Below, in pieces: positions 3,261 through 53,566 of a stretch of 64,000 bases of DNA. Source of the stretch: Alphaproteobacteria bacterium. GTDB taxonomy: Bacteria; Pseudomonadota; Alphaproteobacteria; SP197. The DNA is taken from contig CBDAUG010000001.1 of assembly GCA_965200495.1 (NCBI GenBank), positions 1,191,406-1,255,405 of the forward strand, given 5' to 3'. Made by a program: the position numbers and the translations under genes. The notes below the pieces were generated by a model. The model was given only the letters and a program-made list of their open reading frames with translations. It did not search any database and was not told where the DNA came from. The first letter of the stretch is position 1. The number at the start of each line of letters is the position of its first letter.

Positions 3261-4448
3261 ATGCGCCAGCCCCTTCGGCGCAGGCCGTCCATGCTGGTTC
3301 TGGTGATGATCGCGTCGATCGGTCCCCTGGCGCTGCAGGTCCTGGTCCCTGCGATGCCAGGCCTCGCCAGCGACTTCGACACGGATTTTTCCGTCACCCA
3401 GTTGTCTCTTTCGGTGTACCTGATCGGCATTGTGGCGGGGCAACTCGTCTATGGTCCGTTCTCCGACCGCTTTGGCCGCCGTCCGGTGCTCATCACCGGG
3501 CTCGTGGTCTATATCGGTGGCACGCTCTTTTGCCTGGTGGCCTGGAACATCGAGGCGCTCATCATCGGCCGGGCGTTGCAGGCCCTGGGCGGCAGCGCAG
3601 GGATCGTGCTGGCGCGTGCCATCATCAGGGACATGCATGATCGCGAGGGATCGGCGCAGATGCTGGCCTACGTGACGGCCGGCATGATTGTCGCGCCGAT
3701 GGTCGGCGCCATCGCCGGTGGCTACCTCTACGAGTGGTATGGCTGGCAGTCGGTCATGATTCTGGCGCTCACCATCGGTCTTCTCGTGACCGGAGTGTGC
3801 ATCGTCGTTCTGAGCGAAACCAACACGAAGCGCACATCCCGGACCTCGTTTCGGGACATGGTGAGGGATTGCGCGCGCCTCCTCGGCAAGCGGCTGTTCC
3901 TCGGCTACGCCCTGCAGGTCTCCTTCACCACGGCGACGTTCTTCACCTTCCTGGGAGGCGCATCGGCCGTGGCGGTGACCATCTACGAGCGCAGTCCGTC
4001 CGAGTACGCTCTCTGGTTCATGCTGGTGTCAGGCAGCTATATGACCGGCAATTTCATCTCCGGGCGGATCAGCCGCCGGATCGGCATCGACCGCATGATC
4101 ACCATCGGAACGACAGTCTCCTCCTTGGCCGCTCTCGTCATGGTGGCCCTTTTTCTCTTCGGCTGGTTCGGGCTGGTTCATTTCTTCGTGCTGGCAGGGG
4201 TGATGTCCCTGGGCAACGGTTTCAGCATGCCCAACGGCTTCGCCGGCATCGTCAGCGTGGAGCCTGGCCGCGCCGGGACGGCATCGGGTCTCTCCGGCGC
4301 CCTGCAGATGGGTCTGGGCGCCATCGCCATGACCGTTGTCGGCCACACCCTGACGGACAGCGCAATGCCGGTGATTGTCATCATGCTGATCCTTGCGTTT
4401 CTGGCGCTGATCGCCCATGTGCATGGCACAGGAGGAGACGCACCTTGA
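3261..4448 (+). CDS. MFS transporter, Bcr/CflA-like drug efflux family
   Basis: 395 aa with about 12 predicted TM helices. The N-terminal motif GPLALQVLVPAMPGLASDF...GPFSDRFGRRPV matches the MFS signature (D-R/K-x-G-R-R/K). The alternative start at 3291 (MLVLV) cannot be excluded. Confidence 0.75.
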   Translation: MRQPLRRRPSMLVLVMIASIGPLALQVLVPAMPGLASDFDTDFSVTQLSLSVYLIGIVAGQLVYGPFSDRFGRRPVLITGLVVYIGGTLFCLVAWNIEALIIGRALQALGGSAGIVLARAIIRDMHDREGSAQMLAYVTAGMIVAPMVGAIAGGYLYEWYGWQSVMILALTIGLLVTGVCIVVLSETNTKRTSRTSFRDMVRDCARLLGKRLFLGYALQVSFTTATFFTFLGGASAVAVTIYERSPSEYALWFMLVSGSYMTGNFISGRISRRIGIDRMITIGTTVSSLAALVMVALFLFGWFGLVHFFVLAGVMSLGNGFSMPNGFAGIVSVEPGRAGTASGLSGALQMGLGAIAMTVVGHTLTDSAMPVIVIMLILAFLALIAHVHGTGGDAP

Positions 4449-4477
4449 TGATCATGCCGAACCGGGAGATGCAGCGT

Positions 4478-5448
4478 TGAAAGCCTTGCTGTGCCGAGCG
4501 TGGGGTGGACCTGAAGATCTTGTCGTGGATGATGTGGCGGACCCTGAGCCCGGCCCCGGTGACATTGTCGTCCGCGTCGAAGGCTGCGGCGTGAATTTCG
4601 CCGATACCCTCATCATCCAGGGTGCCTACCAGGTGAAGCCCGAACACCCGTTCACGCCGGGCATGGAAGTGGCCGGCACGGTCCTGAAGACCGGGTCAGG
4701 GGTGGACAACGTCAAGCCCGGCGATGCGGTCATCGCCATGCCCGGTGTCGGTGGTTTCGCCGAGCAGGTGGTGTGCAAGGCTTCTCAGGCGATGCGGCGT
4801 CCCGCCGGCATCGATGCTGTGACAGCCGCCGCCATTCCCATCGCCTATGGTACGGCTCACATCGGCCTCGAGGTGCGGGGCAGGCTTCAACCGGGCGAGA
4901 GTCTCCTCGTGCACGGAGCGTCGGGTGGTGTCGGCCTTGCTGCAGTCGAGGTCGGCAAGGCCATGGGCGCCCTCGTCATTGCCACGGCGAGCAGCGCCGA
5001 CAGGCTGGAGACGGCACGCCGTCACGGTGCGGATCACGTCATCAACTATGGTGACGGCGAATTCCGTGGCGAGGTCAAGGAGATCACCAAGGGTGGCGCC
5101 GACGTCATCTTCGATCCCGTCGGTGGTGACGTCTTCGACCAGTCATTGCGCTGCATTGCCTGGGAAGGACGTCTGCTCACCATCGGATTTGCCTCGGGCC
5201 GCATCCCCCAGGCGCCGGCCAACATCCTGCTGGTCAAGAACATCTCCGTCGTCGGCGTTCACTGGTCCAACTATCGTGAAAGCCGGCCCGCACTCCTCGA
5301 ACGCTCCTTCGGGCAGATCTTCACATGGATGTCCGAAGGCGCACTGCGCCCGCTGGTCTCGAGAACCTTTACCCTCAAGGAGGCGCCGCAAGCCCTTGCC
5401 GATCTCGCCGGACGCCGGGCCCGCGGCAAGATCGTGGTCATTCCCTGA
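4478..5448 (+). CDS. NADPH:quinone oxidoreductase / zinc-type alcohol dehydrogenase superfamily (Qor-like)
   Basis: ORF 4417..5448. Qor-like N-terminus (L)KALLCRAWGGPEDLVV...GDIVVRVEGCGVNFAD and nucleotide-binding GASGGVGLAAVE. I chose the TTG at 4478 as start because it gives MKALLCRAWGG typical of the family, a GGGAGA RBS precedes it, and it avoids overlap with the upstream MFS gene. The ATG at 4417 is the alternative. Confidence 0.7.
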
Positions 5449-5463
5449 CATGGCGAGGAAGAC

Positions 5464-6246
5464 ATGATGAGACATCAAGGCAGGATTGCGGTGGTCACCG
5501 GGGCCGCCCAGGGCATCGGGCTTGCCTGTGCCAGGCGGCTGGCGGGAGAGGGTGCGCTGGTCGTCATGGGGGATGTCCAGGGTGCGAAAGTCGCCGAAGA
5601 GGCAGCGTCGCTGGGCGCCGTCGCCATGACCGTGGACGTGTCGCGTCGCGAGGACGTCGATGCGCTTGTCCGGTGCGCCCTTGATACCCACGGCAGGCTC
5701 GACATCATGGTCAACAATGCCGGTGTCGGTTTCAACGCCGGCGTTCTCGACATCGCCGAGGAGGATTTCGACCGCGTCCTCGGTGTCAATCTCAAGGGCG
5801 TGCTGTTCGGCTCGCAAGCCGCGGGCCGCGTCATGGTGGAGCAGGCGTCCGGCGGCGCCATCGTCAACATGTCTTCGGTCCAGGCAGAACTTGCCATTCC
5901 CAACAGTGTTGCCTACGGCGTCTCGAAGGCGGGGATCAACCAGCTGACAAGGATCTTTTCCGTCGCTCTGGCAAGCCACAATGTCAGGTGCAACGCCGTG
6001 GGGCCAGGCACCATACTGACCGACATGGCACGCGGCGCCGTGCTCTCCAGCGACGAGGCCTACCGCATGATCCTCTCGCGCACGCCGCTGGGTCGCCTCG
6101 GCGAGGCGGACGAGGTCGCGCGCGTCGTGTCGTTTCTGGCAAGCGACGATGCAGCCTATGTCACGGGCCAGGTCATCTATCCCGACGGCGGACGCATGCC
6201 GGTGAACTACACCGTGCCGGTGGAGACGCTGCCCGCCATAGAATGA
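5464..6246 (+). CDS. Short-chain dehydrogenase/reductase (SDR) family oxidoreductase
   Basis: 260 aa. TGAAQGIGLA Rossmann motif, NNAG motif, and a YxxxK catalytic region (SVAYGVSKAG). GAGGAAG RBS before the ATG. Confidence 0.85.
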   Translation: MMRHQGRIAVVTGAAQGIGLACARRLAGEGALVVMGDVQGAKVAEEAASLGAVAMTVDVSRREDVDALVRCALDTHGRLDIMVNNAGVGFNAGVLDIAEEDFDRVLGVNLKGVLFGSQAAGRVMVEQASGGAIVNMSSVQAELAIPNSVAYGVSKAGINQLTRIFSVALASHNVRCNAVGPGTILTDMARGAVLSSDEAYRMILSRTPLGRLGEADEVARVVSFLASDDAAYVTGQVIYPDGGRMPVNYTVPVETLPAIE

Positions 6247-10844: not shown

Positions 10845-12832
10845 AGGCGCTGCGCTTTCGGGTTCGCAACTATCGCAACATCGAGGACAGCGGCTGGGTA
10901 CCACTCGATCCGGTCACGGTCCTTGTCGGACGCAACGAGTCGGGAAAGACCTCCCTGCTGAAGGCGCTCAACAAGTTCAATCCGGGAACGGCGGAAACCT
11001 TTGACGCTCAGCGCGAATTTCCGCGTGACCGCTATACGCGCGACTATGTCCTTGCCGGTTCCACGGGCGCGGAGTGGCCTGTCTGTTCCATCGAGTTCGA
11101 GATTCCCGACCAGCAGAAACGCGATATCGCAACCCTGCTGGGTCCGGACCGGGCGGTGCCCGAGAAGGTCACCGTCACGCGCCACTACGACGGCTCTCTC
11201 GCATTTTCCTACATGCCTCAGATCGGGGCCAAACCGGCAGGGCCGGATCCTCTCATGGGGGCTCTCGAGGATCTGGCGCTTTCTGACGATTCGCCGCGCC
11301 TGGCTGCATGGGCCAGCGCGTGGCACGATCGGTTGAGCAAGATTGATGACGTCACAAGCGCTGCCGGCCGTGCCGCTCTGGCCGAAATCGACGCAGAGAT
11401 TTCCGGCCTCGGTGATGAACGGCTCGGCGCTCTCGGTGCGATCGTCGCCGCCATGCTGCGGATGCCCTTCGCAAGCAGGGTGATCGATCACGTCAACGCC
11501 CTGGTGGAACGCGAGCTGCCGCGGCTCGTCTACTTCGAGAACTATGGCGTTCTCGACAGTGCCATCTGGCTGCCGGAGATGTTGCGGGGCCTTGAACGCG
11601 AGGAACCGGAACCGCGGTTCCGAACCGCCCTTGCGCTCTTTCGTCATGCGGGCCTTGATCCGCGGGACATCGCGGAACTCGCCTCCCCGGGCAACACGGC
11701 GCCGGGCGAAGACATGCAACGCAAGATGGAGGAGCGGGCCATCCGTCTCAATGCCGCGTCGGTCGACATCAGCCGTCGCTGCAGCGCGTTGTGGTCGCAG
11801 AGGCGCCATCGCATCCGGTATCACGTCGACGGAGATTACTTTCGCATCAGGGTTGCTGACGATTCGCTGGAGGACGTGGAGATCGAGCTGGAATCCCGCG
11901 GCAAGGGTTTCCAGTGGTTCCTCTCGTTTTTCCTCGTCTTTGCCGCGGAGTCGGAGGGCGCCATGGGCGACGCCATCATCCTGCTGGACGAACCCGGCCT
12001 CAGCCTTCACCCGACGGCACAACGTGAACTGCTGGCGTTCTTCGAGCGTTTGTCCGCCGAAAACCAGGTCATCTACACAACGCATTCACCGTTTCTTGTC
12101 GACGGTGATCATCTCGAGCGGGTGCGTCCGGTGTTCGAGGAGGACAACGGGCGTGCCCGCATCCTCAAGGGTTCATGGCCCGCCCATCCCGAAACGGTGT
12201 TCGCGCTCAAGGCGGCTGCCGGATATGCGATGTTCGATTCCCTTGCGCAACGTGGTCGGGCGCTGCTTGTCGAACAGGTCAGCGACGCCTGTTACCTCGA
12301 GGCGCTGTCGCGGCACTGTGGCAGAACGGGGAGGAGCGCGCTGGACGATTCCGTCGACGTGGTGCCCTGTGGCGGTGCGGCGGTGTGCGGTTATCTGGCA
12401 TCCCTCCTCATGGCCGAGCACCGGCGTCCGCTGATCCTCTTCGACGGCACGGACGCCGGGCGCCTGCGGCGGCATGGACTGGTGAAGGGCCTCCTCGACG
12501 AGGGAGACAGTTCGATTGTTCTCCTCGACGAAGCTCTCGGCTGGTCCGGACATGATATGTGCCTCGAGGATCTCTTCGGCGAGAGCATCATCCTCGAGTG
12601 TCTCGGCACTGCGACCGGGATCAGGCTGTCGCTTGCCCATGACGCTGATCGGGCGAGCCTCGTCGGTCGCATCGAGAGCGCAGCAGCGACGGCAAACATT
12701 GCGCTTCCCCGATCCTGGCGGTTGGACACGGCCCTGACGGTGACGTTGTCGCAAGTGTCCCTGCCGGACGACGTCCTCGATTCGGCCTCGCTTCTCTTCA
12801 CGAAGCTTGCCGGTGACGACCAGGGACAATGA
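10841..12832 (+). CDS. OLD-family nuclease-like protein: N-terminal ABC-type (AAA_15/AAA_21) ATPase plus C-terminal Toprim-like domain
   Basis: 663 aa. Walker A GRNESGKTS at aa 30-38. An OLD/AAA_21-type Walker B/signature ILLDEPGLSLHP and an H-loop YTTHSP. The C-terminal about 200 aa has Toprim-like motifs (LLVEQVSD, VVPCGG, ILFDGTD, VLLDEA). Translationally coupled to the upstream gene. Confidence 0.65.
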   Translation: MKALRFRVRNYRNIEDSGWVPLDPVTVLVGRNESGKTSLLKALNKFNPGTAETFDAQREFPRDRYTRDYVLAGSTGAEWPVCSIEFEIPDQQKRDIATLLGPDRAVPEKVTVTRHYDGSLAFSYMPQIGAKPAGPDPLMGALEDLALSDDSPRLAAWASAWHDRLSKIDDVTSAAGRAALAEIDAEISGLGDERLGALGAIVAAMLRMPFASRVIDHVNALVERELPRLVYFENYGVLDSAIWLPEMLRGLEREEPEPRFRTALALFRHAGLDPRDIAELASPGNTAPGEDMQRKMEERAIRLNAASVDISRRCSALWSQRRHRIRYHVDGDYFRIRVADDSLEDVEIELESRGKGFQWFLSFFLVFAAESEGAMGDAIILLDEPGLSLHPTAQRELLAFFERLSAENQVIYTTHSPFLVDGDHLERVRPVFEEDNGRARILKGSWPAHPETVFALKAAAGYAMFDSLAQRGRALLVEQVSDACYLEALSRHCGRTGRSALDDSVDVVPCGGAAVCGYLASLLMAEHRRPLILFDGTDAGRLRRHGLVKGLLDEGDSSIVLLDEALGWSGHDMCLEDLFGESIILECLGTATGIRLSLAHDADRASLVGRIESAAATANIALPRSWRLDTALTVTLSQVSLPDDVLDSASLLFTKLAGDDQGQ

Positions 12833-22011: not shown

Positions 22012-22233
22012 ATGAAACAGGAACTCGATGTGCGGGGACTCGCCTGTCCCCTGCCCGTGCTCAAGGCGCGCAAGCGCCTCAAGGAGATGGCGAGCGGGGA
22101 GGTTCTCGTCGTTCATGCCACGGACCCTGGTTCGCAGAAGGATTTCGAGGCCTTCGCCGACACCACGGGTCATGCCCTGCTGGCCGCGGCGACGGATTCC
22201 GGCGTCTACACCTTCGAGATTCGACGCCGCTGA
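22012..22233 (+). CDS. TusA-like sulfurtransferase (SirA/YedF/YeeD family)
   Basis: 73 aa. The DVRGLACPLPVLKARKRL motif carries the conserved CPxP cysteine. It has the typical two-layer alpha/beta size. Confidence 0.75.
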   Translation: MKQELDVRGLACPLPVLKARKRLKEMASGEVLVVHATDPGSQKDFEAFADTTGHALLAAATDSGVYTFEIRRR

Positions 22234-22275
22234 TCCTTGTCTTGCGGATGGTCGCCTTGTGGTCCACACTGGCAC

Positions 22276-22368
22276 CAGTCACTCACGGGGAGCTCCTTGG
22301 GAGCTGAGAGATGCCGAGAGGCATCGACCCGTCGAACCTGATCCGGATCATGCCGGCGTAGGGATTGA
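22276..22368 (+). ncRNA. TPP (thiamine pyrophosphate) riboswitch, THI-box, in the 5' leader of thiB
   Basis: Conserved THI-element core: CACGGGGAGCTCCTTGGGAGCTGAGAG...GACCC...GAACCTGATCCGGATCATGCCGGCGTAGGGA (CTGAGA and the ACCTGATC(T/C)GGATAATGCCAGCGTAGGGA consensus). Downstream, CACCTCCCC can pair with the thiB SD GGAGG, which would be a translational expression platform. Confidence 0.8.
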
Positions 22369-22429
22369 GGAGACGGTCTTTCCCCCACCAGAAAGGCACC
22401 TCCCCGGCACCGGCGCCGAAGGAGGAACC

Positions 22430-23425
22430 ATGGCAAGAGTCTTGACCTTTCTGTCGGTTGCCTTGCTGACCATGCTGTCAGCGCGCGCCGAAACACTTGA
22501 TATCTACACCTACGAATCCTTTGTCAGCGAGTGGGGCCCGGGACCTGAGATCGAGGAGGCCTTCGAGGCGCGTTGCGCGTGCACCATCCGCTGGACGGCG
22601 GTCGATGACGCCGCAATCCTGTTGTCGAGACTGCGCCTCGAGGGATCAGGCGGCGAGGCGGATGTGGTGCTCGGGCTCGATACCAACCTGATGGCGGAAA
22701 CCCGCGATCTTGGCCTTGTGCGCCCGCACGGCCTTGCCGGCCTGGAGTTTGATCTTCCTGTTCCCTGGGATGATTCCGTCTTTGTTCCCTTCGATTACGG
22801 GTATTTCGCGGTGATCTACGATGATCAGGCGCTGCCTCGGCCACCGGCATCACTCGATGAACTGGTGTCGGGCGGCGACGGCGCCGATCTCATTATCCAG
22901 GATCCCCGTACCAGTACTCCGGGGCTGGGCCTCCTGCTGTGGATGAAGTCTGTCTACGGCGATTCTGCGGCTGACGCCTGGCGCAGGCTGTCGTCACGTG
23001 TTCTCACCGTGACCGCGGGCTGGAGCGAGGCCTACGGGCTGTTCCTGGAGGGCGAGGCGCCGATGGTGCTGAGCTATACAACCTCGCCTGCCTATCACCG
23101 GCTTGTCGAGGGCGAAACGCGTTACCGTGCCGCCATGTTCGAGGAAGGCCACTACATGCAGATCGAGGTGGCGGCCATGGTCGATGGCACGGACCAGGAA
23201 GACCTCGCCCGCGACTTTCTGAGCTTCATTGCGACGCCGGAGTTCCAGGGCGCCATTCCGACGGGCAACTGGATGTACCCGGTGATCGATCTCGGTGACG
23301 ATCTGCCGGACGTCTTCCGTGAACTGCCGGAGCCTGCCATGTCACTGCTGCTGGCGCCGGAAGAAGCCGGCGCCATGCGCCGACAGTGGACCGACGAGTG
23401 GCTGGAGGCGGCCATCGGAGAATGA
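22430..23425 (+). CDS. thiB: Thiamine ABC transporter substrate-binding protein
   Basis: ORF 22028..23425 trimmed to the ATG at 22430, which has a perfect AAGGAGGAACC RBS. Signal peptide MARVLTFLSVALLTMLSARA. Periplasmic binding protein fold of about 331 aa. Preceded by the TPP riboswitch and followed by thiP/thiQ. Confidence 0.85.
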   Translation: MARVLTFLSVALLTMLSARAETLDIYTYESFVSEWGPGPEIEEAFEARCACTIRWTAVDDAAILLSRLRLEGSGGEADVVLGLDTNLMAETRDLGLVRPHGLAGLEFDLPVPWDDSVFVPFDYGYFAVIYDDQALPRPPASLDELVSGGDGADLIIQDPRTSTPGLGLLLWMKSVYGDSAADAWRRLSSRVLTVTAGWSEAYGLFLEGEAPMVLSYTTSPAYHRLVEGETRYRAAMFEEGHYMQIEVAAMVDGTDQEDLARDFLSFIATPEFQGAIPTGNWMYPVIDLGDDLPDVFRELPEPAMSLLLAPEEAGAMRRQWTDEWLEAAIGE

Positions 23426-43749: not shown

Positions 43750-45632
43750 GCGGGCGTGTCGCAGTGGCGCTGCTTGTGGCGTTTCTCGCCATGCCTGTCC
43801 CGGCGTCCGAGGCGCCCTGGTTTGCGGAACAGGTCGCTTCCGGCGATCTGCCGGCCCTTCACGAGCGTCTGCCGGACAACCCGCGCGTTGTCGACGATGG
43901 CCGGGAAACCGGCGACTACGGCGGCGACTGGAACATGCTGATCGCGCGCAGCAAGGACACGCGAATCCTCGCGGTCTTCGGCTACGCCCGGCTGATCGGA
44001 TACGACAAGACCTTCACCCTTCAACCGGATCTCCTCGACTCCTTCACCGTCGAGGACGGGCGCATCTTCACCTTCCGCTTGCGCAGAGGCCACCGATGGT
44101 CGGATGGTCATCCCTTTAGCTCAGAGGATTTTCGCTACTGGTGGGAGGACGTTGCCGGCAACCCTGAACTCTCTCCGTCGGGCCCGCCGACTGCCATGCG
44201 CGCCGGCGGCGTCTTGCCTCTTTTCGAAGTCATCAGCGACGAGGTCGTGCGCTACACCTGGCCCGTTCCCAACCCCGATTTCCTGCCGGCACTGGCCGGT
44301 GCTGCGCCCCTCTTCATCTACCGTCCGGCGCACTACATGAAGCAGTTCCACGTGGATCATGGTGACGCCGAGGCCATCCGGCGTCAGGCCACCGAGGCCG
44401 GCAAGCCTGGCTGGGCATCGCTTCACAACGCCAACGACAACCTCTATCGCTTCGACAACCCCGACCTTCCCACACTGCAGCCATGGTTCATCACCAACGA
44501 GGCGCCGGCCCAGCGGTTCATCGCGGAGCGAAATCCCTTCTTTCACAGGGTGGATGCCCGGGGGCGGCAGCTTCCCTACATTGACCGCGTCGTCATGACC
44601 GTCGTTGACAGCAAGCTCATCCCCCTCAAGACGTGGGCCGGGGAAGCCGATCTGCAGGTACGGGGGCTTGCCTTCAACGACTACACCTTCCTGAAGGAAG
44701 GAGAGGAGCACAACGACTACCAGGTACGGCTGTGGCAGACGGCGAGAGGGAGCCAGCTGGCACTCTATCCCAATCTCAACGTCGCCGATCCGGTGTGGCG
44801 CACGGTGCTGCGGGACCTTCGCTTCAGGCGGGCTCTTTCGCTGGCCATCAACCGCCGGGAGATCAACCAGGTGATCTACTTCGGTCTCGGCATCGAAGGG
44901 CAGAACACGGTTCTTCCCGCATCGCCCCTCCACCGCGCCGAGTTCCGGGATGCCTGGGCCCAGTTCGATCTTGAGGAGGCCAATCGGCTGCTCGACGACA
45001 TGGGACTCATTGTCGATGACGGCATGCGCCTGCTTCCCGATGGCAGACCGCTGGAAATCATCGTCGAGACCGCGGGCGAGAACCCCGAAGAGACCGACAT
45101 ACTCGAACTGATCCACGATTCCTGGGCAGCGGCCGGAATCAAGCTCTATCCCAAACCCCTGCAGCGAGAGGTCCTGCGCAACCGCATCTTTGCCGGGGAG
45201 ACGGTGATGGCCATGTGGTTCGGCAATGAGAACGGCGTACCCGTGGCCGACATGAGTCCCGGTGAGTTCGCTCCGACGACCCAACAGCTGCTGATGTGGC
45301 CGCGGTGGGGCCAGCACCACGAAACCGGCGGTGCCGCCGGGGAGCCGATCGACATGGAAGTGCCGCGCCGCCTTATGGATCTCTATCTCGCTTGGCGCAC
45401 CAGCAGGACCTCCGATGAGCGCCGGGCCATCTGGGACGAGATGCTGGAACTCTACTGCAACGGGGTCTACTCCATCGGCCTGGTTGCCGGCATCCTCCAG
45501 CCCCTTGCCGTCTCGAACCGGATGAGGAACGTGCCGGCGGAAGCCATCTACAACTGGGATCCCGGAGCCCAGCTCGGTGTGTGGCAACCTGACACCTTCT
45601 TCTTCGTCGATGGCGACGACGGTCGGTCATGA
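43746..45632 (+). CDS. ABC transporter substrate-binding protein, family 5 (YejA/oligopeptide-like)
   Basis: ORF 43647..45632, start at the ATG at 43746, overlapping the upstream stop. Signal peptide [23 protein letters not shown]. The roughly 628 aa size fits YejA-type SBPs. Confidence 0.85.
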   Translation: MSGRVAVALLVAFLAMPVPASEAPWFAEQVASGDLPALHERLPDNPRVVDDGRETGDYGGDWNMLIARSKDTRILAVFGYARLIGYDKTFTLQPDLLDSFTVEDGRIFTFRLRRGHRWSDGHPFSSEDFRYWWEDVAGNPELSPSGPPTAMRAGGVLPLFEVISDEVVRYTWPVPNPDFLPALAGAAPLFIYRPAHYMKQFHVDHGDAEAIRRQATEAGKPGWASLHNANDNLYRFDNPDLPTLQPWFITNEAPAQRFIAERNPFFHRVDARGRQLPYIDRVVMTVVDSKLIPLKTWAGEADLQVRGLAFNDYTFLKEGEEHNDYQVRLWQTARGSQLALYPNLNVADPVWRTVLRDLRFRRALSLAINRREINQVIYFGLGIEGQNTVLPASPLHRAEFRDAWAQFDLEEANRLLDDMGLIVDDGMRLLPDGRPLEIIVETAGENPEETDILELIHDSWAAAGIKLYPKPLQREVLRNRIFAGETVMAMWFGNENGVPVADMSPGEFAPTTQQLLMWPRWGQHHETGGAAGEPIDMEVPRRLMDLYLAWRTSRTSDERRAIWDEMLELYCNGVYSIGLVAGILQPLAVSNRMRNVPAEAIYNWDPGAQLGVWQPDTFFFVDGDDGRS

Positions 45633-46627
45633 TCGCCTTCACTGTCCACAGGCTCATCATCATGGTGCCGACGCTGATCGGCATCAGCCTCATCACCTTT
45701 GTCATCATCCAGCTTCCGCCCGGCGATTTCCTGTCGACCATGATTGCCGAATGCGAGGCCCAGGGTGAGTCGGGTTGCATGGAACAGATTGGCATATACC
45801 GCCAGGAGTTCGGTCTCGACCGGCCCATGTCGCATCAGTACGTGATATGGGTTGCTGACCTTGTCCGGGGCGACATGGGAATCAGCTTCGAATACAACCG
45901 GCCGGTGGCCGAGGTCATCGGCGAGAGCCTTTGGCTTACCATCATTGTTTCCGGCGCGACCATCATCTTTACCTGGGTTGTCGCCTTTCCCATCGGGGTC
46001 TACTCGGCGACACATCAGTATTCCTGGGGCGATCACGGGCTCACCTTCCTGGGATTTCTCGGCCTGGCGACGCCCAATTTCCTGCTCGCCCTTGTGCTGC
46101 TGTTCCTCGGGAACGTGTGGTTCGGGACATCGATTGGCGGTCTCATGGATCCCGTCTATATCGATCAGCCCTGGACCTGGGGAAAATTCCTCTCGATCCT
46201 CGAACACCTGTGGATTCCGGTGGTGGTGATCGGCACCTCCGGCACGGCGGGCATGATCCGCCGCCTTCGCGCCAATCTGCTTGACGAACTCCACAGGCAG
46301 TATGTCGTCACGGCGAAGGCCAAGGGCCTGCATCCGGCGCGCGTGCTTGTCCGCTACCCGCTGCGCATGGCCCTCAATCCGTTCATTGCCGATATCGGCA
46401 ATCTTCTTCCCCAGGTCATCTCAGGAGCGGTGATCGTGTCGGTGGTGCTGTCGCTCCCCACCACCGGCCCCATCCTTCTGCGCGCCCTGCAGACCCAGGA
46501 CATGTATCTCGCCGGTTCGTTCCTGATGTGTCTGGCGCTGCTGACCGTTCTCGGGGTGCTGGCCTCCGATCTGCTGCTGGCGCTGCTCGATCCACGCATC
46601 CGTCTGGGGAGCAGCGGGAACAGGTAA
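45629..46627 (+). CDS. ABC transporter permease (YejB/DppB-like)
   Basis: 332 aa, 6 TM. ABC permease EAA-like loop. ATGA overlap upstream. Confidence 0.85.
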   Translation: MIAFTVHRLIIMVPTLIGISLITFVIIQLPPGDFLSTMIAECEAQGESGCMEQIGIYRQEFGLDRPMSHQYVIWVADLVRGDMGISFEYNRPVAEVIGESLWLTIIVSGATIIFTWVVAFPIGVYSATHQYSWGDHGLTFLGFLGLATPNFLLALVLLFLGNVWFGTSIGGLMDPVYIDQPWTWGKFLSILEHLWIPVVVIGTSGTAGMIRRLRANLLDELHRQYVVTAKAKGLHPARVLVRYPLRMALNPFIADIGNLLPQVISGAVIVSVVLSLPTTGPILLRALQTQDMYLAGSFLMCLALLTVLGVLASDLLLALLDPRIRLGSSGNR

Positions 46628-47790
46628 TGAGCGGCGCACCTGGCCAGACCGATCACTGGGCCGACACCCGGCCGTGGGATCCTCATGACGTCGACAAGCT
46701 GACACCGGAGCTGGAGCGCTTCTATCTCGCCAACCAGTGGACGCTGATGTGGTGGAAGTTCCGCCGCCACCGCCTCGCCGTCATTTCCGGCATGATCCTC
46801 CTGGCGACGTTCTTTTCCATCGCCGTTTCAGAGATTCTCGCTCCCTACAATCTCCATACGCGCAACACTGATCACATCTATGCGCCGCCGCAGATGGTGC
46901 GGCTGTTTCACGAAGGCCGGTTCATCGGACCCTTCGTCTACGGCTACGACTATCATCTCGACATGTCCAACCTGCAGCGGGTCTACACCCCGGATCCAAC
47001 CAGGGTCGAACCTCTGCGATTCTTCTGCCTGGGGGATGCGTACACGTTCTGGGGCATGGTCGAGATGCGCTTCCATGTCGTCTGTCCGGCCGAGGGCGGC
47101 ACCCTCTTCCTGCTGGGAACCGACAGGCTGGGGCGCGATCTCCTGTCGAGGATTCTCATGGGTGCGCGCATATCGCTCACCGTGGGCCTCATCGGCATCG
47201 CCATCAGCTTCCTCCTGGGGATCGTCCTGGGTGGCCTTTCGGGCTACTACGGCGGCTGGGTCGACAGCCTTGTTCAGCGCACGATCGAGATCATCCGCAG
47301 TTTCCCGGAGTTACCCTTGTGGATGGCGTTGTCGGCGGCCCTGCCGATCACCTGGAGCCCGGTCCTGGTCTATTTCGGCATCACCATCATCCTCGGCCTC
47401 TTCGACTGGACCGGTCTGGCGCGGGCCGTGCGTTCGAAACTGCTGGCCCTGCGGGAGGAAGACTTTGCCACGGCCGCCGTGCTGATGGGCGCAAAGCCGT
47501 CACGGGTCATCTTTCGTCACCTGCTTCCGGGCTTCACCAGCCACCTCATTGCCTCGGCGACCCTTTCCGTTCCCGGCATGATCCTCGGAGAGACGGCGCT
47601 CTCCTTCCTGGGTCTGGGTCTCAGGCCACCGATCACGAGCTGGGGCGTTCTCCTCAACGAGGCCCAGAACATCAACATCGTGGCGCTCTATCCCTGGCTC
47701 ATGCTGCCCGTCGTTCCCGTCATCATTGTCGTCCTCGCCTTCAACTTCCTCGGCGACGGACTGCGCGACGCCGCCGATCCCTACCGCTAG
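46627..47790 (+). CDS. ABC transporter permease (YejE/DppC-like)
   Basis: ORF 46528..47790, start at the ATG at 46627 (TAATG overlap). A long N-terminal periplasmic extension precedes 6 TM, as in YejE. Confidence 0.85.
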   Translation: MSGAPGQTDHWADTRPWDPHDVDKLTPELERFYLANQWTLMWWKFRRHRLAVISGMILLATFFSIAVSEILAPYNLHTRNTDHIYAPPQMVRLFHEGRFIGPFVYGYDYHLDMSNLQRVYTPDPTRVEPLRFFCLGDAYTFWGMVEMRFHVVCPAEGGTLFLLGTDRLGRDLLSRILMGARISLTVGLIGIAISFLLGIVLGGLSGYYGGWVDSLVQRTIEIIRSFPELPLWMALSAALPITWSPVLVYFGITIILGLFDWTGLARAVRSKLLALREEDFATAAVLMGAKPSRVIFRHLLPGFTSHLIASATLSVPGMILGETALSFLGLGLRPPITSWGVLLNEAQNINIVALYPWLMLPVVPVIIVVLAFNFLGDGLRDAADPYR

Positions 47791-48521
47791 TCCGCATCGC
47801 GGGATCATGATCGGGCCCCGCGCACGCTCCGTCACCGTGTCGCCCTGGCTGGAAGGCGAGGACGTCGGGTGCGTTTTTCCGGCGAGCCTTCTGTGATCGG
47901 TTTTGTCCCCGTGGGCAACGGCAGTCGGGAGCGGGTATTGCACCCTGGCTGTCAGGGACGGGCGCCGACGCGAGAACGGCGCTGACAGGCACGCCACGCA
48001 CTTTCGGTGAACTCCCTGGCGTTCTCCTTGCTTTCGACATCTCAAGGTCCTGATCAACGCGTCGAGCATGTCCTCGACGCGCATGCCGCGCAAAACGGCT
48101 CACAATTCCTTTGCTTCGCCCTCAACGTCGACCGCCGCGCTTGCGCCCGCCTTCCGGCACCAACGTCTCCCGGACCTTGATGGCCGTCGAATCCCGCGAG
48201 ACATGGCCTACAATCTCACAGCCCAGCGCCTCCTCAGACGAGGTCTCCCCGCAAGACGCGACGGGGAGAACTCAAGCCTCGCGTGGACTTCCGGCAAGCG
48301 CGACCAGCCGCGCAGCCGGCACAAGCGTCGCGTCCTCCAGCAGCCTCTTCGATCAGGCGGCACGCGTCCACACACCGCCTTGGCCCTGAAGGCCCGGACC
48401 GTCCCCACGTGCCTGACCGGCAAGGCGCTCCACCTGAACCAGTGACAAGGACGGTCACGAAACGCCGGTTCCGTTCGAGAAAGGGGGCCGGCCTCCTCGG
48501 CCAGATCGCCCTTGCTTGCTT

Positions 48522-48791
48522 CTAGGAGCCGCCCACCAATTGCTGCAAATTGGGCGCAAAAGTGATCAGGGCTGCAATGGCGGCAATCAGGATGGCCGTC
48601 TGCCACCATCTCGCGTTGGCATCCCGCTCTGATCGCGCCGCATCCCGTTCTGATCGTGCCGCATCCCGTTTCGCCATGTCTTCGGCCAGGCGGGCAATGT
48701 CCGTGCGATACTCGGCCTGCATCGTCTTCATGCGTTCCTCCAGGGCGGCAAGTTGCCGTGCCAGTTCGTGGTTGTCCGGTGCTTCACTCAT
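48522..48791 (-). CDS. Small coiled-coil, C-terminally tail-anchored membrane protein (ElaB/DUF883- or XhlA-like) with internal RDAARSE tandem repeat
   Basis: 89 aa. The N-terminus is predicted coiled coil (LARQLAALEERMKTMQAEYRTDIARLAEDM). It has an RDAARSE x2 repeat and a C-terminal TM (WWQTAILIAAIAALITF). A frameshifted paralog lies at 51506-51726 on the other strand. Confidence 0.5.
   Translation of the reverse strand: MSEAPDNHELARQLAALEERMKTMQAEYRTDIARLAEDMAKRDAARSERDAARSERDANARWWQTAILIAAIAALITFAPNLQQLVGGS
48619..48675. repeat. Tandem direct repeat, 21-bp unit x about 2.7 (GCATCCCG[C/T]TCTGATCG[C/T]GCC), inside the small-protein CDS
   Basis: The sequence shows gcatcccgctctgatcgcgcc, then gcatcccgttctgatcgtgcc, then a partial gcatcccgtttcgcc. 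It encodes the RDAARSE peptide repeat on the minus strand. Confidence 0.9.
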
Positions 48792-49420
48792 GCGTCATGG
48801 TCGTTGTGAATCCTGCGACGCCGAGCAGGACGTCATGGCATCCACCCGCAAGCGCTGGCATCGCCGACGCTGCCAGTGCCACAAATAGTTGCTACAATGT
48901 TCAGTTGCTTCACGATCGGTTCTCGACCCGAACTCAGCGTCGGATGGTTCTGTTGGCCATTGCGCAACCCTGTTCCCGTGCCTAACAGTATGTGCATTCA
49001 GGGCGGGTCCATCAAGCGGTTATGCGTATTGCGCCACATGATTGCCCTCGCGATCCTGTCGCCGCCCGGGTGCCCGGTCGCCACCGCGCCCGAACAATGG
49101 TGGCGCTATCTCGATGAGAGGAAGGGCATCAGTCACGACACCCGTATCTCCTGACTCAATGCCATTGCCCTCGGCTGGGGGTAAGAAACATCATGTTGGT
49201 TTGCGACGAAACCGCGCCAATTCCCATGTCACGAAGCGCTGCCGCCAGACGGGCTGCACGAGCGTGATCTTCTGCCAGTTGCGGCAAATGATGTTCCAGA
49301 GCATACAGTTCCGCGGCGGCCAAGAAACGCCACAGCCTGCCGGCACATCCAGAAGTCTTCCCCGTCAATCAGGGCGCGGGCTGCGCACATCGTCCCGGAA
49401 ACCGCCGTCGGGAAGGTCGT

Positions 49421-50386
49421 TCACGAAGGTCCATCGTCATAGGAGAATGCTCTGGCCATGCGTGATACCAGGTAATCGCCGCAGGCAATCGGATCGTGGG
49501 CCGGAATTTCACCGTGCGCGCACGATACCGACGGATCGATCAGGGTGTCGAAATCGGGGTCGAAAGCCACAACGATGGACAGTCTCTCGCGTCCCGACCG
49601 GTTGATGACCCGGTGCGGTGTCGAACGCAGTTTCCCGTTGCTCCATCGCTCCAGCAGGTCGCCCACGTTGACGACGAGTGTGCCTGGAACAGGAGGTGCG
49701 GCGATCCATTCGCCTTCGTAGTCCTGAACGTGGAGACCTCCGACCTCGTCCTGGCATAGCACGGTCAGAACTCCGAAGTCAGTGTGCGGCGAGACACCGA
49801 AGACCTCCGGGCCCAGGGTGTCGGGTTGAGGCGGATAGTAGGTCAGTGACGCCCGGCTGAGAGGCCTCGAGGTGGTCTGAAGAAAGGCATCGGCCGACAG
49901 GCCAAGACCCAGGGCGCAGCCGCGCAGGACATGCCGGGCGACGTCGCTGGCGGACGTGAGATAGCGTTCCAGAAGCGGACGCAGGGCCGGCATCGACGCG
50001 GGCCACCGGTTGACGCCCTGCAAGGGCCTGTTGCGTTGTGAGACGGGGAAGTCATGACCCCACACGAAACTCTCCTTGAGATCTGCAATGGCGTCATCAT
50101 CCATTTTCGAGGCGCCCTGTCTCAGATAGCCCCGGTGGTCTCTGCTGATGGAGACGTCCTGCTTGATCTCGTCCTTCTGCCGGAAGAACGCCAGTCCCAT
50201 GCGATGCGCCCGGGCGATCAGCTCCGCATCGATCCCGTGATTGCGGATGTAGAGAAACCCGACATCCCGGCTGGCTTCGTGGATCTCCCTGGCAACGCGC
50301 AACTCTGCAGAACCGTCGCGCAACGGGTCGATATCGATGATCGGTATGACAGAGGCGTCGATCTCCCTGTGTGCGGCGTAACCCAT
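49421..50386 (-). CDS. 2-oxoglutarate/Fe(II)-dependent oxygenase, isopenicillin-N-synthase-like family
   Basis: ORF 49421..50410(-), start at the ATG at 50386, which has an AGGAGA RBS. The HxD...H facial triad context is present (SPHTDFGVLTVLCQD ... RSTPHRVIN) with an RxS 2OG-binding motif. It has the N-terminal non-haem dioxygenase domain. Confidence 0.8.
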   Translation of the reverse strand: MGYAAHREIDASVIPIIDIDPLRDGSAELRVAREIHEASRDVGFLYIRNHGIDAELIARAHRMGLAFFRQKDEIKQDVSISRDHRGYLRQGASKMDDDAIADLKESFVWGHDFPVSQRNRPLQGVNRWPASMPALRPLLERYLTSASDVARHVLRGCALGLGLSADAFLQTTSRPLSRASLTYYPPQPDTLGPEVFGVSPHTDFGVLTVLCQDEVGGLHVQDYEGEWIAAPPVPGTLVVNVGDLLERWSNGKLRSTPHRVINRSGRERLSIVVAFDPDFDTLIDPSVSCAHGEIPAHDPIACGDYLVSRMARAFSYDDGPS

Positions 50387-50387
50387 G

Positions 50388-50987
50388 TCAGGTATCTCCT
50401 GTCGTCTCACCGGCTGAGACGTAAAATCCTACCATGTCGCCTGCAAGGGTCACGCCAAGACCGTTAAGCAGGCGGTTGACGTAGTTGAAGTAGCCGCAGA
50501 TCTGGTTGACTTCAAGAATGACGCCGTCGTCAACGCCACAGTCACGCATGGCGGCAAGATCACTTTCGACCATCGTGCCGGGGTCGAGGGTCAGTTTCTC
50601 GGCATAACGAAGCATGGCGAGATGAGCGGTTTCGAAGGCGGTCTCCGGACGCCCGGCCTTGAGCGCGTTGAGGATGGTGTCGGCACGTTCGTCATCGGCG
50701 ATGAGATGGCGGGCGTTGGCGAAGTGGTTGGTGAGTGAGTAGTCGCAACGGTTGAGAATGCTGACCCAGGAGGCGATCACCTCCTGAAACCACATGGGGA
50801 GCTCGTTCCCGTCGTTGTGCAGGACGCTCATGTAGAGTTCCCAATGGCCCATCATGGTGTGTGGCCGCAGCGCATGGACACGCATGACGTTGTCCACCCG
50901 CCCGGACGGGCCACGCGCCCGTTCGAGAGTGGCCTTCAGCTCCGGCGAGGCCTTCGAATCCTCGATCATGGTGATCCAGGCCGTCAT
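50388..50987 (-). CDS. Carboxymuconolactone decarboxylase / AhpD-like (peroxidase-related) family protein
   Basis: ORF 50388..51050(-) trimmed to the ATG at 50987, which has a GAGGAGG RBS. The CDYSLTNH motif fits the AhpD-fold CxxxH-type signature. About 199 aa. Its stop sits 1 nt before the oxygenase start codon. Confidence 0.65.
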   Translation of the reverse strand: MTAWITMIEDSKASPELKATLERARGPSGRVDNVMRVHALRPHTMMGHWELYMSVLHNDGNELPMWFQEVIASWVSILNRCDYSLTNHFANARHLIADDERADTILNALKAGRPETAFETAHLAMLRYAEKLTLDPGTMVESDLAAMRDCGVDDGVILEVNQICGYFNYVNRLLNGLGVTLAGDMVGFYVSAGETTGDT

Positions 50988-51505
50988 GGATGACCTCCTC
51001 GTGACGCGTCGCAAGCCGCCACATTGTCGGGATTGCCCCTGCGAGTCCACGACGCAGATCCGGCGATCGATCGGAAACCGCCTGAAATCCCCGAGAAGGG
51101 ATCATCCGCTGCCGCCTTGGTCTCGCGAGTGTTTTCTCGGTGCAGACGGTCTCCGATGTGCGCGAGCATACCGATCCAGACTGACTGGCGCCCTTTAACC
51201 GCTCATTCTGGATCAGCGTGATCCAACGGCTCACCCTTGGTTTGAAGTGCCTGCCCTTGTTCATTTGTCGGGAGGAACCCGAATGGACCGAGCGCGTCCT
51301 TGACCACCTGAACCGTGCCCGGCGTCGGGGCGCCCATGGGGCGCGCCGGATCAGATGGGCCCGGGACTCTGCGACGGTCCTGAGCCCATCACCTTCCCCG
51401 AGGAGTTGCGGCGTCTGTCAGACCCCGACGCGCAAAGCGCAGTTCCAGAACGGACGCACCCCCTGCGGGCTTGAGCGGTCCGGCAGGCGCGCCTATCCTT
51501 GGGGC

Positions 51506-51726
51506 ATGGGTGGTACGTCGGACAACCACGAGCTCAACCGGCGGGTCGCCATTCTGGATGAATGCATGAAAACGATGCAGGCCGACCTTTCGGCGTCCCT
51601 TGAGCGGTTCCGGGCCGACATGGGTCACACCGTAATGCGGCGAAACGGGACAGGGACAACCAGCGCTGGCAGATCGCTCTCTGGATCGCCGCCGTTGTCA
51701 TCCTGGATTTCCTGATCCGGGCATGA
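51506..51726 (+). pseudogene. Frameshifted paralog of the small coiled-coil tail-anchored protein (inverted relative to copy at 48522-48791)
   Basis: MGGTSDNHELNRRVAILDECMKTMQADLSASLERFRADM parallels copy 1 (MSEAPDNHELARQLAALEERMKTMQAEYRTDIARLAEDM). The C-terminal TM-like segment (NQRWQIALWIAAVVILDFLIRA) is only readable in the +2 frame after about 51625, consistent with a 2-nt insertion. Confidence 0.35.
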
Positions 51727-51887
51727 GCGGCATGCCGACTGCCCGGGATTGGTATAATCTCCTTTCGTTCGGCGCGCGTGCCGTCGACCGGAACCATGGC
51801 GTTTGAACGGGTCAACGAAACCCGGGAACCAGGATGCTCAACTCTTTGAAAGGTGGCCAAGGTCGACCGGAGTATTCCGCGATTCGC

Positions 51888-53354
51888 TCAGTTCCGGGTT
51901 CCGCGAAGAGTCAGGCGGTCGCCCGTATCGGCGAGCATGGCGACCGTGCGTCGTATGTCATCCTCGCTGGTTCGGGGGTTGATGAGGCACATGCGCAGCA
52001 CGGTTCGACCGTTCAAAACAGTTGAGGTGACGACAGCTTCGCCAGTCGCCATGATTTCATGCGGTATCGCGCCGTTGACCTCGTCGAGCCTCGCATCCCC
52101 GTGCGATCCGTTGCCGACATAGCGAAAGGTGACGATGCCCAGGCATGCCGATGATGTCACCTCAAGCCGGTCATCGCTTTTGACCTCCCGCGCCGCCACC
52201 TCTGCAAGAAGAATGCCCCTGTCGATGGCTTCCCTGATGGCGTCCAGCCCCAGGCACTGAAGGCTCACCCAGAGCTTGAGGGCCCGAAATCCACGGCTCA
52301 ACTGGATGCCGCAGTCGCAAAAATTGACTTCCTGGCCGATTGTCTTCGCGTCCTGCATGTAGTCGCCCGAGTTGCGAAACGTCTTGGCGAGCAGGGTCCT
52401 GTCACGCACCAGGACGGCACCTATCTCGTATGGCTGGAACATCCACTTGTGGGGATCGAGAACCAGGGAGTCGGCCCTGCCCAGGTCCGCCAGCAGTTCC
52501 CCGGAGCGCTGGCCCAGGGCCGCACTTGCGCCATAGGCGCCGTCAACGTGCAGCCACATTTCCTCCTCGCTGCAGATGTCAGCCAGGGGAGCCAGTGGAT
52601 CGACGGCGCCGGTGTTGGTTGAACCTGCATTGGCAACGACACAAAACGGCCGTTTTCCCTGGGTGCGATCCCTCGCGATGGCCTCGCGAAGACGATCGGG
52701 ATCCAGCCTGAAATCGCAGTCGGCCCTGATTCGGAGAAGTTGATGAGATGCAAAGCCGAGCAGGTGGAGCGCCTTGTCGACGGACGCGTGCACCTGATCG
52801 GAGCAATAGATGACAGTGTTGTCCGTTCGATCATCGAGCCTCTCGCGGCGTGCGACTGCCAGACCGGTCAGATTGGCCACCGAACCGCCACTGACAAACA
52901 GCCCCCCCGACCGTGGCGGCAGGCCCACCGTCCGGCACAACCAGTCGATCAGGGAGAGTTCGACCGCCGCCGGTCCGGAGCTTTCGAGCCAGGTGCCGGT
53001 AAAGACGTTGAAACCGGAGGCCAGCACGTCTCCCAGGACGCCATAGAAGTTGCTCGGACCAGGGACGAAGGCAAAGTAGCGCGGGTGGTTGCAGAGCAGG
53101 CTGTTCGCGAAAATGTCTTTGCTGGCATGCGACAGGACATCCGCAAACGGGCGCCCCTTCTCGGGCGGATCGGCGGAGAAGAGGTCCGTCATCTCGCCCA
53201 CGGAACCGACCTGTCCGACCGAACGGTCCGCAAGTGTGGCGAGGTGTTCGACCAGGAGATCGATGGCAGCGTAGCCGTCACGTCGCATCTGCTCGATGTC
53301 GGGCTCAAGACGCGCACGCCACGGCGCATAGCCGTGCTCCGGCTGATCTTTCAT
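51888..53354 (-). CDS. Pyridoxal-phosphate-dependent group II decarboxylase (aromatic amino acid / diaminobutyrate / glutamate decarboxylase family)
   Basis: 488 aa. PLP-lysine region SLVLDPHKWMFQPYEIG and the upstream motifs (HVDGAYGASAA, SGGSVANLTGLAVAR) are characteristic of the group II decarboxylase fold. Confidence 0.8.
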   Translation of the reverse strand: MKDQPEHGYAPWRARLEPDIEQMRRDGYAAIDLLVEHLATLADRSVGQVGSVGEMTDLFSADPPEKGRPFADVLSHASKDIFANSLLCNHPRYFAFVPGPSNFYGVLGDVLASGFNVFTGTWLESSGPAAVELSLIDWLCRTVGLPPRSGGLFVSGGSVANLTGLAVARRERLDDRTDNTVIYCSDQVHASVDKALHLLGFASHQLLRIRADCDFRLDPDRLREAIARDRTQGKRPFCVVANAGSTNTGAVDPLAPLADICSEEEMWLHVDGAYGASAALGQRSGELLADLGRADSLVLDPHKWMFQPYEIGAVLVRDRTLLAKTFRNSGDYMQDAKTIGQEVNFCDCGIQLSRGFRALKLWVSLQCLGLDAIREAIDRGILLAEVAAREVKSDDRLEVTSSACLGIVTFRYVGNGSHGDARLDEVNGAIPHEIMATGEAVVTSTVLNGRTVLRMCLINPRTSEDDIRRTVAMLADTGDRLTLRGTRN

Positions 53355-53566
53355 GGCGCCGATCCCGGGACATCCGTATCCCTGCCTGGCGCGGCCTCCA
53401 CTCTCGCAGAGTTGCCAACGGAATGACGAAACTTCGTGTCATGATGGGATGGGGAGCAGCCGTGGTTGACAAGCCGCGCGACCGGTTCGAGTTCACGGTC
53501 ACTGGCGAAAAAGCCGTCGGCTTCCTCCGGTTCAACCATGTCAAGCCAGCAAGACGGGTCGGCCAT
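53351..53566 (-). CDS. Candidate small Cys/His-containing ORF translationally coupled upstream of the decarboxylase (hypothetical)
   Basis: About 71 aa (MADPSCWLDMVEPEEADGFFASDRELEPVARLVNHGCSPSHHDTK...). A GGTGGAGAG RBS precedes its ATG. Its stop overlaps the decarboxylase ATG (ATGA on the minus strand at 53351-53354). The third codon position is only moderately GC-biased, so the coding call is tentative. Confidence 0.25.
   Translation of the reverse strand: MADPSCWLDMVEPEEADGFFASDRELEPVARLVNHGCSPSHHDTKFRHSVGNSARVEAAPGRDTDVPGSAP

Follow-up and report, generated by a model that had tools for sequence, protein, structure and literature searches.

Two small genes in an alphaproteobacterial genome (Alphaproteobacteria bacterium, GenBank assembly GCA_965200495.1, contig CBDAUG010000001.1), here named copy A and copy B, probably reached the genome independently, each as a member of a different subfamily within an undescribed family of self-contained mini-genes that circulates among bacteria of several phyla. 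They face each other across an oxygenase gene and an AhpD-like gene within the 64,000-nucleotide stretch that was analysed, hereafter the window. Genes of this family would have spread across phyla by horizontal transfer combined with local tandem duplication, the traced source genomes being from sponge microbiomes. The canonical unit would measure about 250–350 bp and consist of a sigma-70 promoter followed by an open reading frame (ORF) of 60–110 aa, with transcription predicted to begin at the start codon and to yield a leaderless mRNA that has no Shine-Dalgarno sequence. The product is predicted to form one long helix composed of the conserved motif LEERMKTMQAEYRTDIARLAEDMAKRD, a spacer that lengthens or shortens in heptad steps, and a basic stretch with a C-terminal anchor. 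It would be a tail-anchored inner-membrane protein with its coiled coil in the cytoplasm, probably self-associating, and its conserved motif would be held off the membrane at a distance varying by one-heptad steps of about 1 nm. Copy B would be a decaying member that has kept the family promoter in an expanded intergenic region, while copy A seems to lie in a stretch where insertion sequence (IS) debris and gene fragments replaced three ancestral genes, and the facing orientation of the two is probably incidental.

Two genes of different subfamilies

Copy A (48522..48791, minus strand) is an intact ORF of 89 aa with the sequence MSEAPDNHELARQLAALEERMKTMQAEYRTDIARLAEDMAKRDAARSERDAARSERDANARWWQTAILIAAIAALITFAPNLQQLVGGS and an anchor of the ARWWQTAILIAA type. 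In the protein homologue search it was 100% identical to P0001 and 74–83% identical to P0002–P0008, and the family hidden Markov model recognized it at E 1.4e-49. Its coiled-coil core (residues 10–43; 48663..48764, minus strand) carries the family signature L..L..LEERMKTMQAEYRTDIARLAEDMAKRD and has 80–90% DNA identity to loci from other classes. A 21-bp tandem repeat of 2.5 units, encoding the heptad RDAARSE, was located by Tandem Repeats Finder at 48619..48670 (minus strand, 93% matches), which bears out the in-frame repeat that the original prediction had described; it is the length-variable coiled-coil spacer and as such an ordinary trait of the family. The C-terminal transmembrane anchor covers approximately residues 64–84 (48540..48602, minus strand), with the best 17-aa hydrophobic window beginning at residue 66 (Kyte-Doolittle maximum 2.19), and the AlphaFold2 model is one helix over residues 7–78 with a mean predicted local distance difference test score of 76. 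The description of the pair as small coiled-coil, tail-anchored proteins is thereby supported, both by the hydrophobic C-terminal segment and by the single-helix model. Upstream of copy A (48792..48860, minus strand) there is neither a TAnnnT at −12..−7 nor a TTG at −35, and the DNA similarity to other family loci ends at 48792–48797. Copy A is read as an intact ORF that would have lost the family promoter.

Copy B is encoded on the plus strand in two frames, as had been proposed. The N-terminal frame, MGGTSDNHELNRRVAILDECMKTMQADLSASLERFRADMGHT, extends from the ATG at 51506 (51506..51631), and the C-terminal frame, RNAAKRDRDNQRWQIALWIAAVVILDFLIRA, occupies 51622..51726 with an anchor of the DNxRWQIGLW...IRWPG type and a stop codon at 51724–51726. 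Alignment with L021, L023, L029, L037, L057 and L058, all loci of the family, places the frameshift zone at about 51620..51635 (plus strand), with one base missing or two extra. The in-frame GACATG and the in-frame AATGCG are separated by 11 nt, so one base was lost or two were gained, corresponding to a −1/+2 correction. Two substitutions accompany the frameshift: a Cys at an Arg position of the core, where EERM is altered to DECM and where R20 is invariant in the alignment of the closest homologues, and an Asp in the anchor where relatives carry Gly. A family-type sigma-70 promoter is present at 51471..51499 (plus strand), made up of TTGAGC (51471–51476), a 17-nt spacer and TATCCT (51494–51499). 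Six bases ending in C follow before the ATG, and the transcript is predicted to begin with the A of this codon. A generic promoter scan missed this promoter because only 8 of its 12 consensus positions match. The frameshift and the Arg-to-Cys and Gly-to-Asp changes suggest that copy B is a pseudogene whose promoter has stayed intact. A longer ORF of 165 aa (51218–51715, plus strand) extends through this promoter and on through the N-terminal frame, and would probably be annotated as a hypothetical protein; its first 96 residues had no Pfam match, and family members begin at the internal ATG at 51506.

That the two genes are paralogous, as first suggested, was confirmed at both levels. Copy A and the frame-corrected copy B share 42% identity over 76 aa (BLASTP, E 5e-16), tblastn recovered both halves of copy B, one per frame, and found no third family copy in the 64-kb window, and the two loci form inverted DNA arms of 89 nt (48712–48800 and 51497–51585) that are 73% complementary. 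The further proposal of an old local duplication did not hold, however, since copy A ranks only 45th among the best matches of copy B in a set of 321 family members. The nearest relatives of copy B are P0138, P0103 and P0116 (53–56% identity), with the DNxRWQIGLW...IRWPG anchor, and the best matches of copy A (78–85% identity) have the anchor ARWWQTAILIAA...FAPDLQ. Judged by sequence, copies A and B belong to different subfamilies with different anchor types and are not a local duplicate.

Size and distribution of the family

A total of 234 homologues was found among 5.8 billion proteins, none of them informatively named and none with a Pfam domain, and a scan of species-representative genomes gave 187 encoded relatives, so the conservation of the ORF in other genomes, on which the original prediction depended, is established. 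A profile search of 1.84 billion cluster representatives returned 515 hits at E≤1e-3, of which 149 reached E≤1e-10; almost all of the best 150 were 45–230 aa long. The family is thus real but rare. Scans of copy A, copy B and 71 members against Pfam, NCBIfam, PHROGs and PADLOC gave nothing above any curated threshold, and no description of the family was found in literature searches on DUF4337, on the signature peptides and on tail-anchored or small membrane proteins of sponge symbionts. Many paralogues share a genome, as exemplified by eight homologues from one 4.1-Mb chromosome. One homologue of unusual size, P0144 (1973 aa), was matched by the family profile in 8 separate stretches and may be a repeat protein of the same heptad material or a low-complexity artefact.

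Relatives occur in metagenome-assembled genomes (MAGs) of Paracoccaceae/Rhodobacteraceae and other Alphaproteobacteria, of Candidatus Binatia, Gemmatimonadota and Bryobacterales (Acidobacteriota), and of Gammaproteobacteria (Pseudomonadales, Pseudohongiella, Thiotrichales), such that the family spans at least five bacterial phyla. Many of the relatives are located on chromosome-level assemblies, and mis-binning is therefore no explanation for this breadth. Among the source genomes, GM7ARB1 is a MAG from the sponge Lamellodysidea (PMC7313196), and the bin prefixes CAR, COS, IRC and RHO appear to match sponge species sampled in an earlier study (PMC8163846). The MAGs whose origin could be traced are all from sponges, and restriction of the family to sponges seems likely.

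Coding capacity and protein architecture

The possibility had to be considered that the repeats are a non-coding DNA element whose ORFs are by-products of high G+C content, given that antisense ORFs of similar length are found across copies. In 85 distinct DNA copies compared over a 30-codon core, the mean pairwise identity was 0.75 at first, 0.78 at second and 0.50 at third codon positions. Third positions are thus far more divergent than first and second, which reveals a coding sequence under purifying selection and refutes a non-coding repeat with accidental ORFs. A non-coding element is also opposed by indels that come in 21-bp quanta, by a start codon at a fixed distance from the promoter and by a hydrophobic anchor that is conserved even though its sequence varies between subfamilies; this explanation is hardly credible.

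In the family alignment a short variable N-terminus is followed by the conserved motif LEERMKTMQAEYRTDIARLAEDMAKRD, with hydrophobic residues spaced 3–4 apart, a heptad spacer, and a basic juxtamembrane stretch with a hydrophobic C-terminal segment. The spacer heptads are rich in Ala, Arg, Asp and Glu (RDAARSE, RDAEAAK, RDVEAAK and others) and variable in number. With a 17-residue window and a Kyte-Doolittle mean of ≥1.6 as the criterion, a C-terminal hydrophobic segment was recognized in 95% of 249 members; beyond it the chain continues for a median of 4 residues. In the same 249 members the 12 residues preceding the segment held on average 2.6 Lys/Arg, compared with 0.26 after it. From this distribution of charge the segment is predicted to be a tail anchor that leaves the helix on the cytoplasmic side.

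The spacer varies by whole heptads. In 73 of 81 unique sequences LEERM and RWWQ are 33, 40, 47, 54 or 61 residues apart, and the corresponding distance in the DNxRW subfamily is 24, 31 or 38 in 12 of 17. Close homologues differ in their number of heptads, and so do paralogues that share a genome: in L029 the members of a tandem trio have 0, 2 and 3, and L057 and L053 have 1 and 3. The coiled-coil register from motif to anchor is preserved at each heptad step, and the length should change, by helix geometry, by about 1 nm. Some members of an array in L019 have a second block (YRTGWEAIRANMAEHQR...) that is internally duplicated, giving proteins of 120–160 aa, so the family also expands by modules larger than the simple heptad.

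A promoter fused to the start codon

When the upstream regions of 95 distinct copies were aligned at the ATG, the resulting matrix displayed TTGaCc at −35..−30, a 17-nt spacer, TAnnnT at −12..−7 and a C at −1. TAnnnT stood exactly at −12..−7 in 53% of the family copies and in 0.6% of 620 control sequences, which were ATG-started ORFs of the same loci, and both boxes were present in 47% and 0%, respectively. A Shine-Dalgarno-like motif was found in only 5% of the family copies. The boxes occupy the positions that they have relative to the transcription start in a sigma-70 promoter, which would put the start of the mRNA at the A of the ATG. Copy B has this geometry and copy A does not. Between loci of different genomes the DNA is similar only over the ORF and at most about 40 nt upstream of it, which indicates that the transferable unit is the promoter together with the ORF. 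No consistent hairpin with a T-run, as expected of a common terminator, was found downstream.

Arrays, neighbours and mobility

Copies often occur in tandem or in clusters of mixed orientation. L080 has four units that recur about every 290 bp, five or six family genes form an array in the Rhodobacteraceae genome GM7ARB1 (L019:3500–6300), and L036 harbours seven copies on both strands. Clustering of the neighbouring ORFs of 79 loci disclosed no conserved neighbour; what lies between clustered copies varies with the locus and may be a porin and a sulfotransferase, metalloproteases, Ffh or a glycosyltransferase. Mobile DNA is found nearby in a subset of loci, with a MobA/MobL relaxase-helicase in 7 and IS5-type transposases or phage-type integrases in others.

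Some individual loci deserve mention. In L054, L055, L056 and L059 a three-gene module consisting of a Porin_4 porin, a Sulfotransfer_1 sulfotransferase and a family mini-gene is repeated, twice per locus, for example at L059:693–2626 and 3970–6237, where one of the two is inverted; in L055 and L056 the module is followed by a MobA/MobL relaxase gene. This module is a lineage-specific association. Downstream of a family gene, L018:6263–11398 and L021:5422–10541 correspond to each other over about 5 kb with 89% identity, a segment that includes a MobA/MobL relaxase-helicase. One of the two MAGs is labelled Rhodobacteraceae and the other Gammaproteobacteria, and their bin prefixes point to one sponge species; the shared segment is either a common plasmid or integrative and conjugative element, or a binning artefact. 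On the 4.1-Mb Paracoccaceae chromosome of L001, a BrnA antitoxin gene (11144–11407) directly adjoins a tandem pair of family genes, a single case from which no general association follows.

Several observations weigh against a family of leaderless, transferable and sponge-associated genes with copy B as a decaying member. The leaderless state of the mRNA is read from promoter geometry only, and about one third of the copies, copy A among them, have no recognizable −10 box at the expected place. As to mobility, only 3 of 98 units had an inverted repeat of at least 12 nt between their 200-nt flanks, so terminal inverted repeats are not a feature of the unit; there is no transposase within it, the unit being promoter and ORF alone; and no relatives were found on the 2.9 million viral contigs of IMG/VR. 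A sponge origin is documented for a part of the source genomes to which the OZ, OY and CBD MAGs do not belong, and the frameshift in copy B could be an assembly error.

History of the locus

The two genes enclosed by copies A and B encode a 2-oxoglutarate (2OG)-Fe(II) oxygenase of 321 aa (49421..50386, minus strand; Pfam) and an AhpD/CMD-type 'peroxidase-related enzyme' of about 200 aa (50388..50987, minus strand; TIGR01926, E 5.7e-27), the latter with 87% identity to the product of a 203-aa gene of L081. Orthologues of the oxygenase, at 83–90% identity, were found in five syntenic loci, L081–L085. These share the order Opp transporter, AAT-family gene, DUF899, a 359-aa gene, 2OG oxygenase, AhpD-like gene and pyridoxal phosphate-dependent decarboxylase, ended by an MTTB-family gene where the contig extends that far; the 359-aa gene is missing from L083, and L082 deviates beyond the AhpD-like gene. 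Three blocks of the window align with these relatives on DNA: the Opp genes (44000–47788) with 89–92% identity, the oxygenase and AhpD-like genes (about 49370–51050) with 84–89%, and the decarboxylase (about 51880–53370; absent from L082) with 85–87%. No family copy was found in L081–L085 (no hit with E<1), and the genome of L082 has family copies at other sites, L027 and L054.

This comparison bears on two ways in which the arrangement could be given a meaning. According to the first, the copies bound a composite mobile element or were left behind by an inversion through recombination between inverted repeats, akin to the fossil inversion or cassette that had been envisaged. Their inverted orientation, the 89-nt arms with 73% complementarity and the IS remnant next to copy A could all be taken in its favour. 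The relative orientations are, however, identical in the window and in L081–L085, from which it follows that the segment between the copies has not been inverted; it is collinear with relatives in which both sites lack a family copy, and with respect to the Opp operon and the decarboxylase it points the same way as in them. As the copies belong to different subfamilies, and as 73% over 89 nt is a poor substrate for recombination, this origin is very unlikely. According to the second, the small proteins are dedicated membrane anchors or scaffolds of the enclosed oxygenase and AhpD-like enzyme, with which they form a functional cassette. The sole support for such a partnership is the physical position of the copies on both sides of the two enzyme genes. 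The orthologous pairs in the five syntenic loci have no family copy nearby; no neighbour is conserved across the 79 family loci, where the genes intervening between clustered copies vary; and one of the two supposed partners is frameshifted. A functional link with the enzymes is highly improbable. The oxygenase/AhpD-like pair is, by its synteny, best regarded as ancestral to the locus and unrelated to copies A and B, and the tempting but wrong reading of it as a cassette bounded by its own membrane partners is thereby removed.

On the side of copy A, 3.4 kb that in L081 hold the AAT-family gene, DUF899 and the 359-aa gene are reduced to 1.6 kb in the window (47789–49365), where copy A, an IS remnant and gene fragments are found. 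The AAT-family acyltransferase, DUF899 and the 359-aa gene, which has no Pfam match, are all missing there, and the stretch is a small zone of genome decay adjoining an otherwise well-conserved Opp operon. The IS remnant next to copy A (48167..48396, minus strand), identified on weak evidence, is a decayed fragment of a DDE transposase with a DUF772-type N-terminus: 48235–48396 matched the transposase genes of L012 and L023 at 69% (blastn, E 3e-7), and 48167–48247 matched transposases at E 0.002–0.03 (tblastn). Between copy A and the oxygenase, gene debris on the minus strand (49046..49424; blastn against L083 and L084) consists of a remnant of the AAT-family gene (49046–49151; blastn), a threonine-aldolase-like C-terminal fragment (49156–49368; NCBIfam PRK10534, E 2.4e-11; Pfam Beta_elim_lyase, E 8e-6) and both ends of the 359-aa gene that comes after the oxygenase in relatives (49317–49424; blastn).

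On the side of copy B, the spacer between the decarboxylase and the AhpD-like gene measures 158–316 bp in relatives and about 840 bp in the window (51051–51887), where it holds copy B. No insertion breakpoints could be defined against L081, since the intergenic DNA is too diverged to align except at the ends next to the genes. None of ten ORFs from the 'empty' flanking DNA matched Pfam, no compositional anomaly was observed around the locus, and there were no Rfam matches in 47500–52200. In the place of L081:3623–5585, only about 130 bp (53374–53504) follow the decarboxylase in the window. In L081, as in L084, this region holds a gene of the MTTB family (trimethylamine methyltransferase-like) and an AhpD-like paralogue of 199 aa; the two were thus lost in the window or gained in the relatives. 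Elsewhere in the window, a thiamine pyrophosphate riboswitch (RF00059) at 22276–22382 (plus strand) scored 79.7 bits, above the gathering score of 54.3. As a listed ATG ORF (22028–23425) encloses it, the start codon of that ORF is probably not real.

Relation to known proteins and possible roles

The original prediction compared the proteins with the ElaB/DUF883 and XhlA types, and membership in either was not sustained, as neither Pfam model matched and only weak PHROG 'holin' and 'hemolysin' matches were obtained. ElaB, YqjD and YgaM of Escherichia coli are tail-anchored inner-membrane proteins that bind ribosomes in stationary phase. Family members resemble these DUF883 (PF05957) proteins in small size (about 100 aa in the E. 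coli proteins), in having a helical cytoplasmic N-terminal part and a single C-terminal anchor, and in the presence of several paralogues per genome. There was no DUF883 match at E≤1 for copy A or B, nor was DUF883 among the 25 families most hit by the 71 members (E≤0.1), and the likeness is one of architecture and no proof of membership. The family further differs by its ATG-fused promoter, whole-heptad length variation, tandem arrays and cross-phylum distribution, none of which, to our knowledge, has been described for ElaB-type genes.

XhlA-type proteins combine a short coiled coil at the N-terminus with a transmembrane helix at the C-terminus, and an origin of the family from phage XhlA or holin-like lysis accessory proteins, in which case it would perturb or permeabilise the membrane, must be weighed. 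PHROG profiles of comparable length were matched weakly but over most of the profile, at E 1e-5 to 1e-3: phrog_689 'holin' in 5 of 71 members (best E 9.3e-6, profile positions 13–84 of 91), phrog_1193 'hemolysin' once (E 1.1e-5), and phrog_6324 in several members, including copy B (E 2e-4). Such E-values do not suffice to demonstrate homology, and values of this order are expected from a shared composition of coiled coil and transmembrane helix. Pfam XhlA (PF10779) did not match copy A or B at E≤1 and was not among the families most hit by the 71 members, relatives were absent from the viral contigs mentioned above, and no endolysin or holin neighbours were seen in the loci inspected, the context in the 79 loci being neither phage nor lysis cassette and the genes between clustered copies having no connection with lysis. 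Arrays of up to 7 constitutively promoted lysis genes also seem hard to tolerate. The PHROG matches fit either a remote relationship or convergence of a coiled coil and a transmembrane helix, and the context speaks against a role in lysis; a holin-like derivation is considered unlikely.

Other resemblances are looser. The most frequent Pfam match was DUF4337 (PF14235), found in 18 of 71 members with a best E of 2e-4; residues 8–77 of copy A matched it with 15 bits (E 0.029), under the gathering score of 27. The matches cover the region from coiled coil to anchor, but the profile, with its 161 positions, has about double the length of a family member, and in the literature DUF4337 had two incidental mentions. 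Eukaryotic and bacterial SNARE-like proteins are likewise tail-anchored coiled coils, and with them the family shares, by analogy only, about 50 residues of heptads leading into a basic/Trp stretch (RWWQ) and a C-terminal anchor; family members have neither a secretion signal nor a delivery system, and there is no sign that they reach host membranes. The PADLOC hits PD-T4-6 and LeoC, together with most of the Pfam hits, look like coiled-coil noise, and a profile search of the PDB returned generic coiled coils only (best E 0.028). As far as can be judged, the family resembles small tail-anchored coiled-coil proteins and is no demonstrable member of any named family.

A role as small membrane toxins, in a module resembling type I toxin-antitoxin systems or otherwise addictive, would account for a multicopy, dispersed and horizontally spread distribution, and it draws on the small size, the hydrophobic tail, the many copies and tandem arrays, the absence of a protein partner, the proximity to mobile DNA and the one locus beside a BrnA antitoxin gene. 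The predicted mRNA has, however, no 5' leader that an antisense RNA could target. Third codon positions are free in the core and no overlapping conserved RNA is evident, although no search was aimed at antisense promoters; nor is there an Rfam match, or conserved DNA further than about 40 nt upstream of the ORF. The proteins are also longer than typical type I toxins and mostly polar coiled coil, which makes a toxin quite unlikely. With modest confidence, a self-associating, membrane-anchored scaffold is favoured over a holin-like or toxin role, the topology and oligomerisation of the protein being predicted from its sequence.

The family unites four unusual traits, namely a leaderless-type promoter, length variation in whole heptads, arrays, and a near-identical core across distant phyla. 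Comparative genomic work on sponge symbionts has centred on large eukaryote-like proteins and on defence systems, and a small shared gene of this kind escapes domain-based surveys because no model matched it. We tentatively raise the possibility, which at present seems doubtful, that these mini-genes represent a portable kind of gene, in which a consensus promoter joined to a leaderless ORF forms a minimal expression unit readable in any bacterial phylum; it would have spread among symbionts that live together in a sponge and been retained because its product is of use there. Its possible roles would then include phage protection, membrane organisation or, most speculatively, SNARE-like interference with membrane traffic of the host. 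If the leaderless design holds true, the family would offer a clear natural example of a gene built for expression after transfer between phyla.

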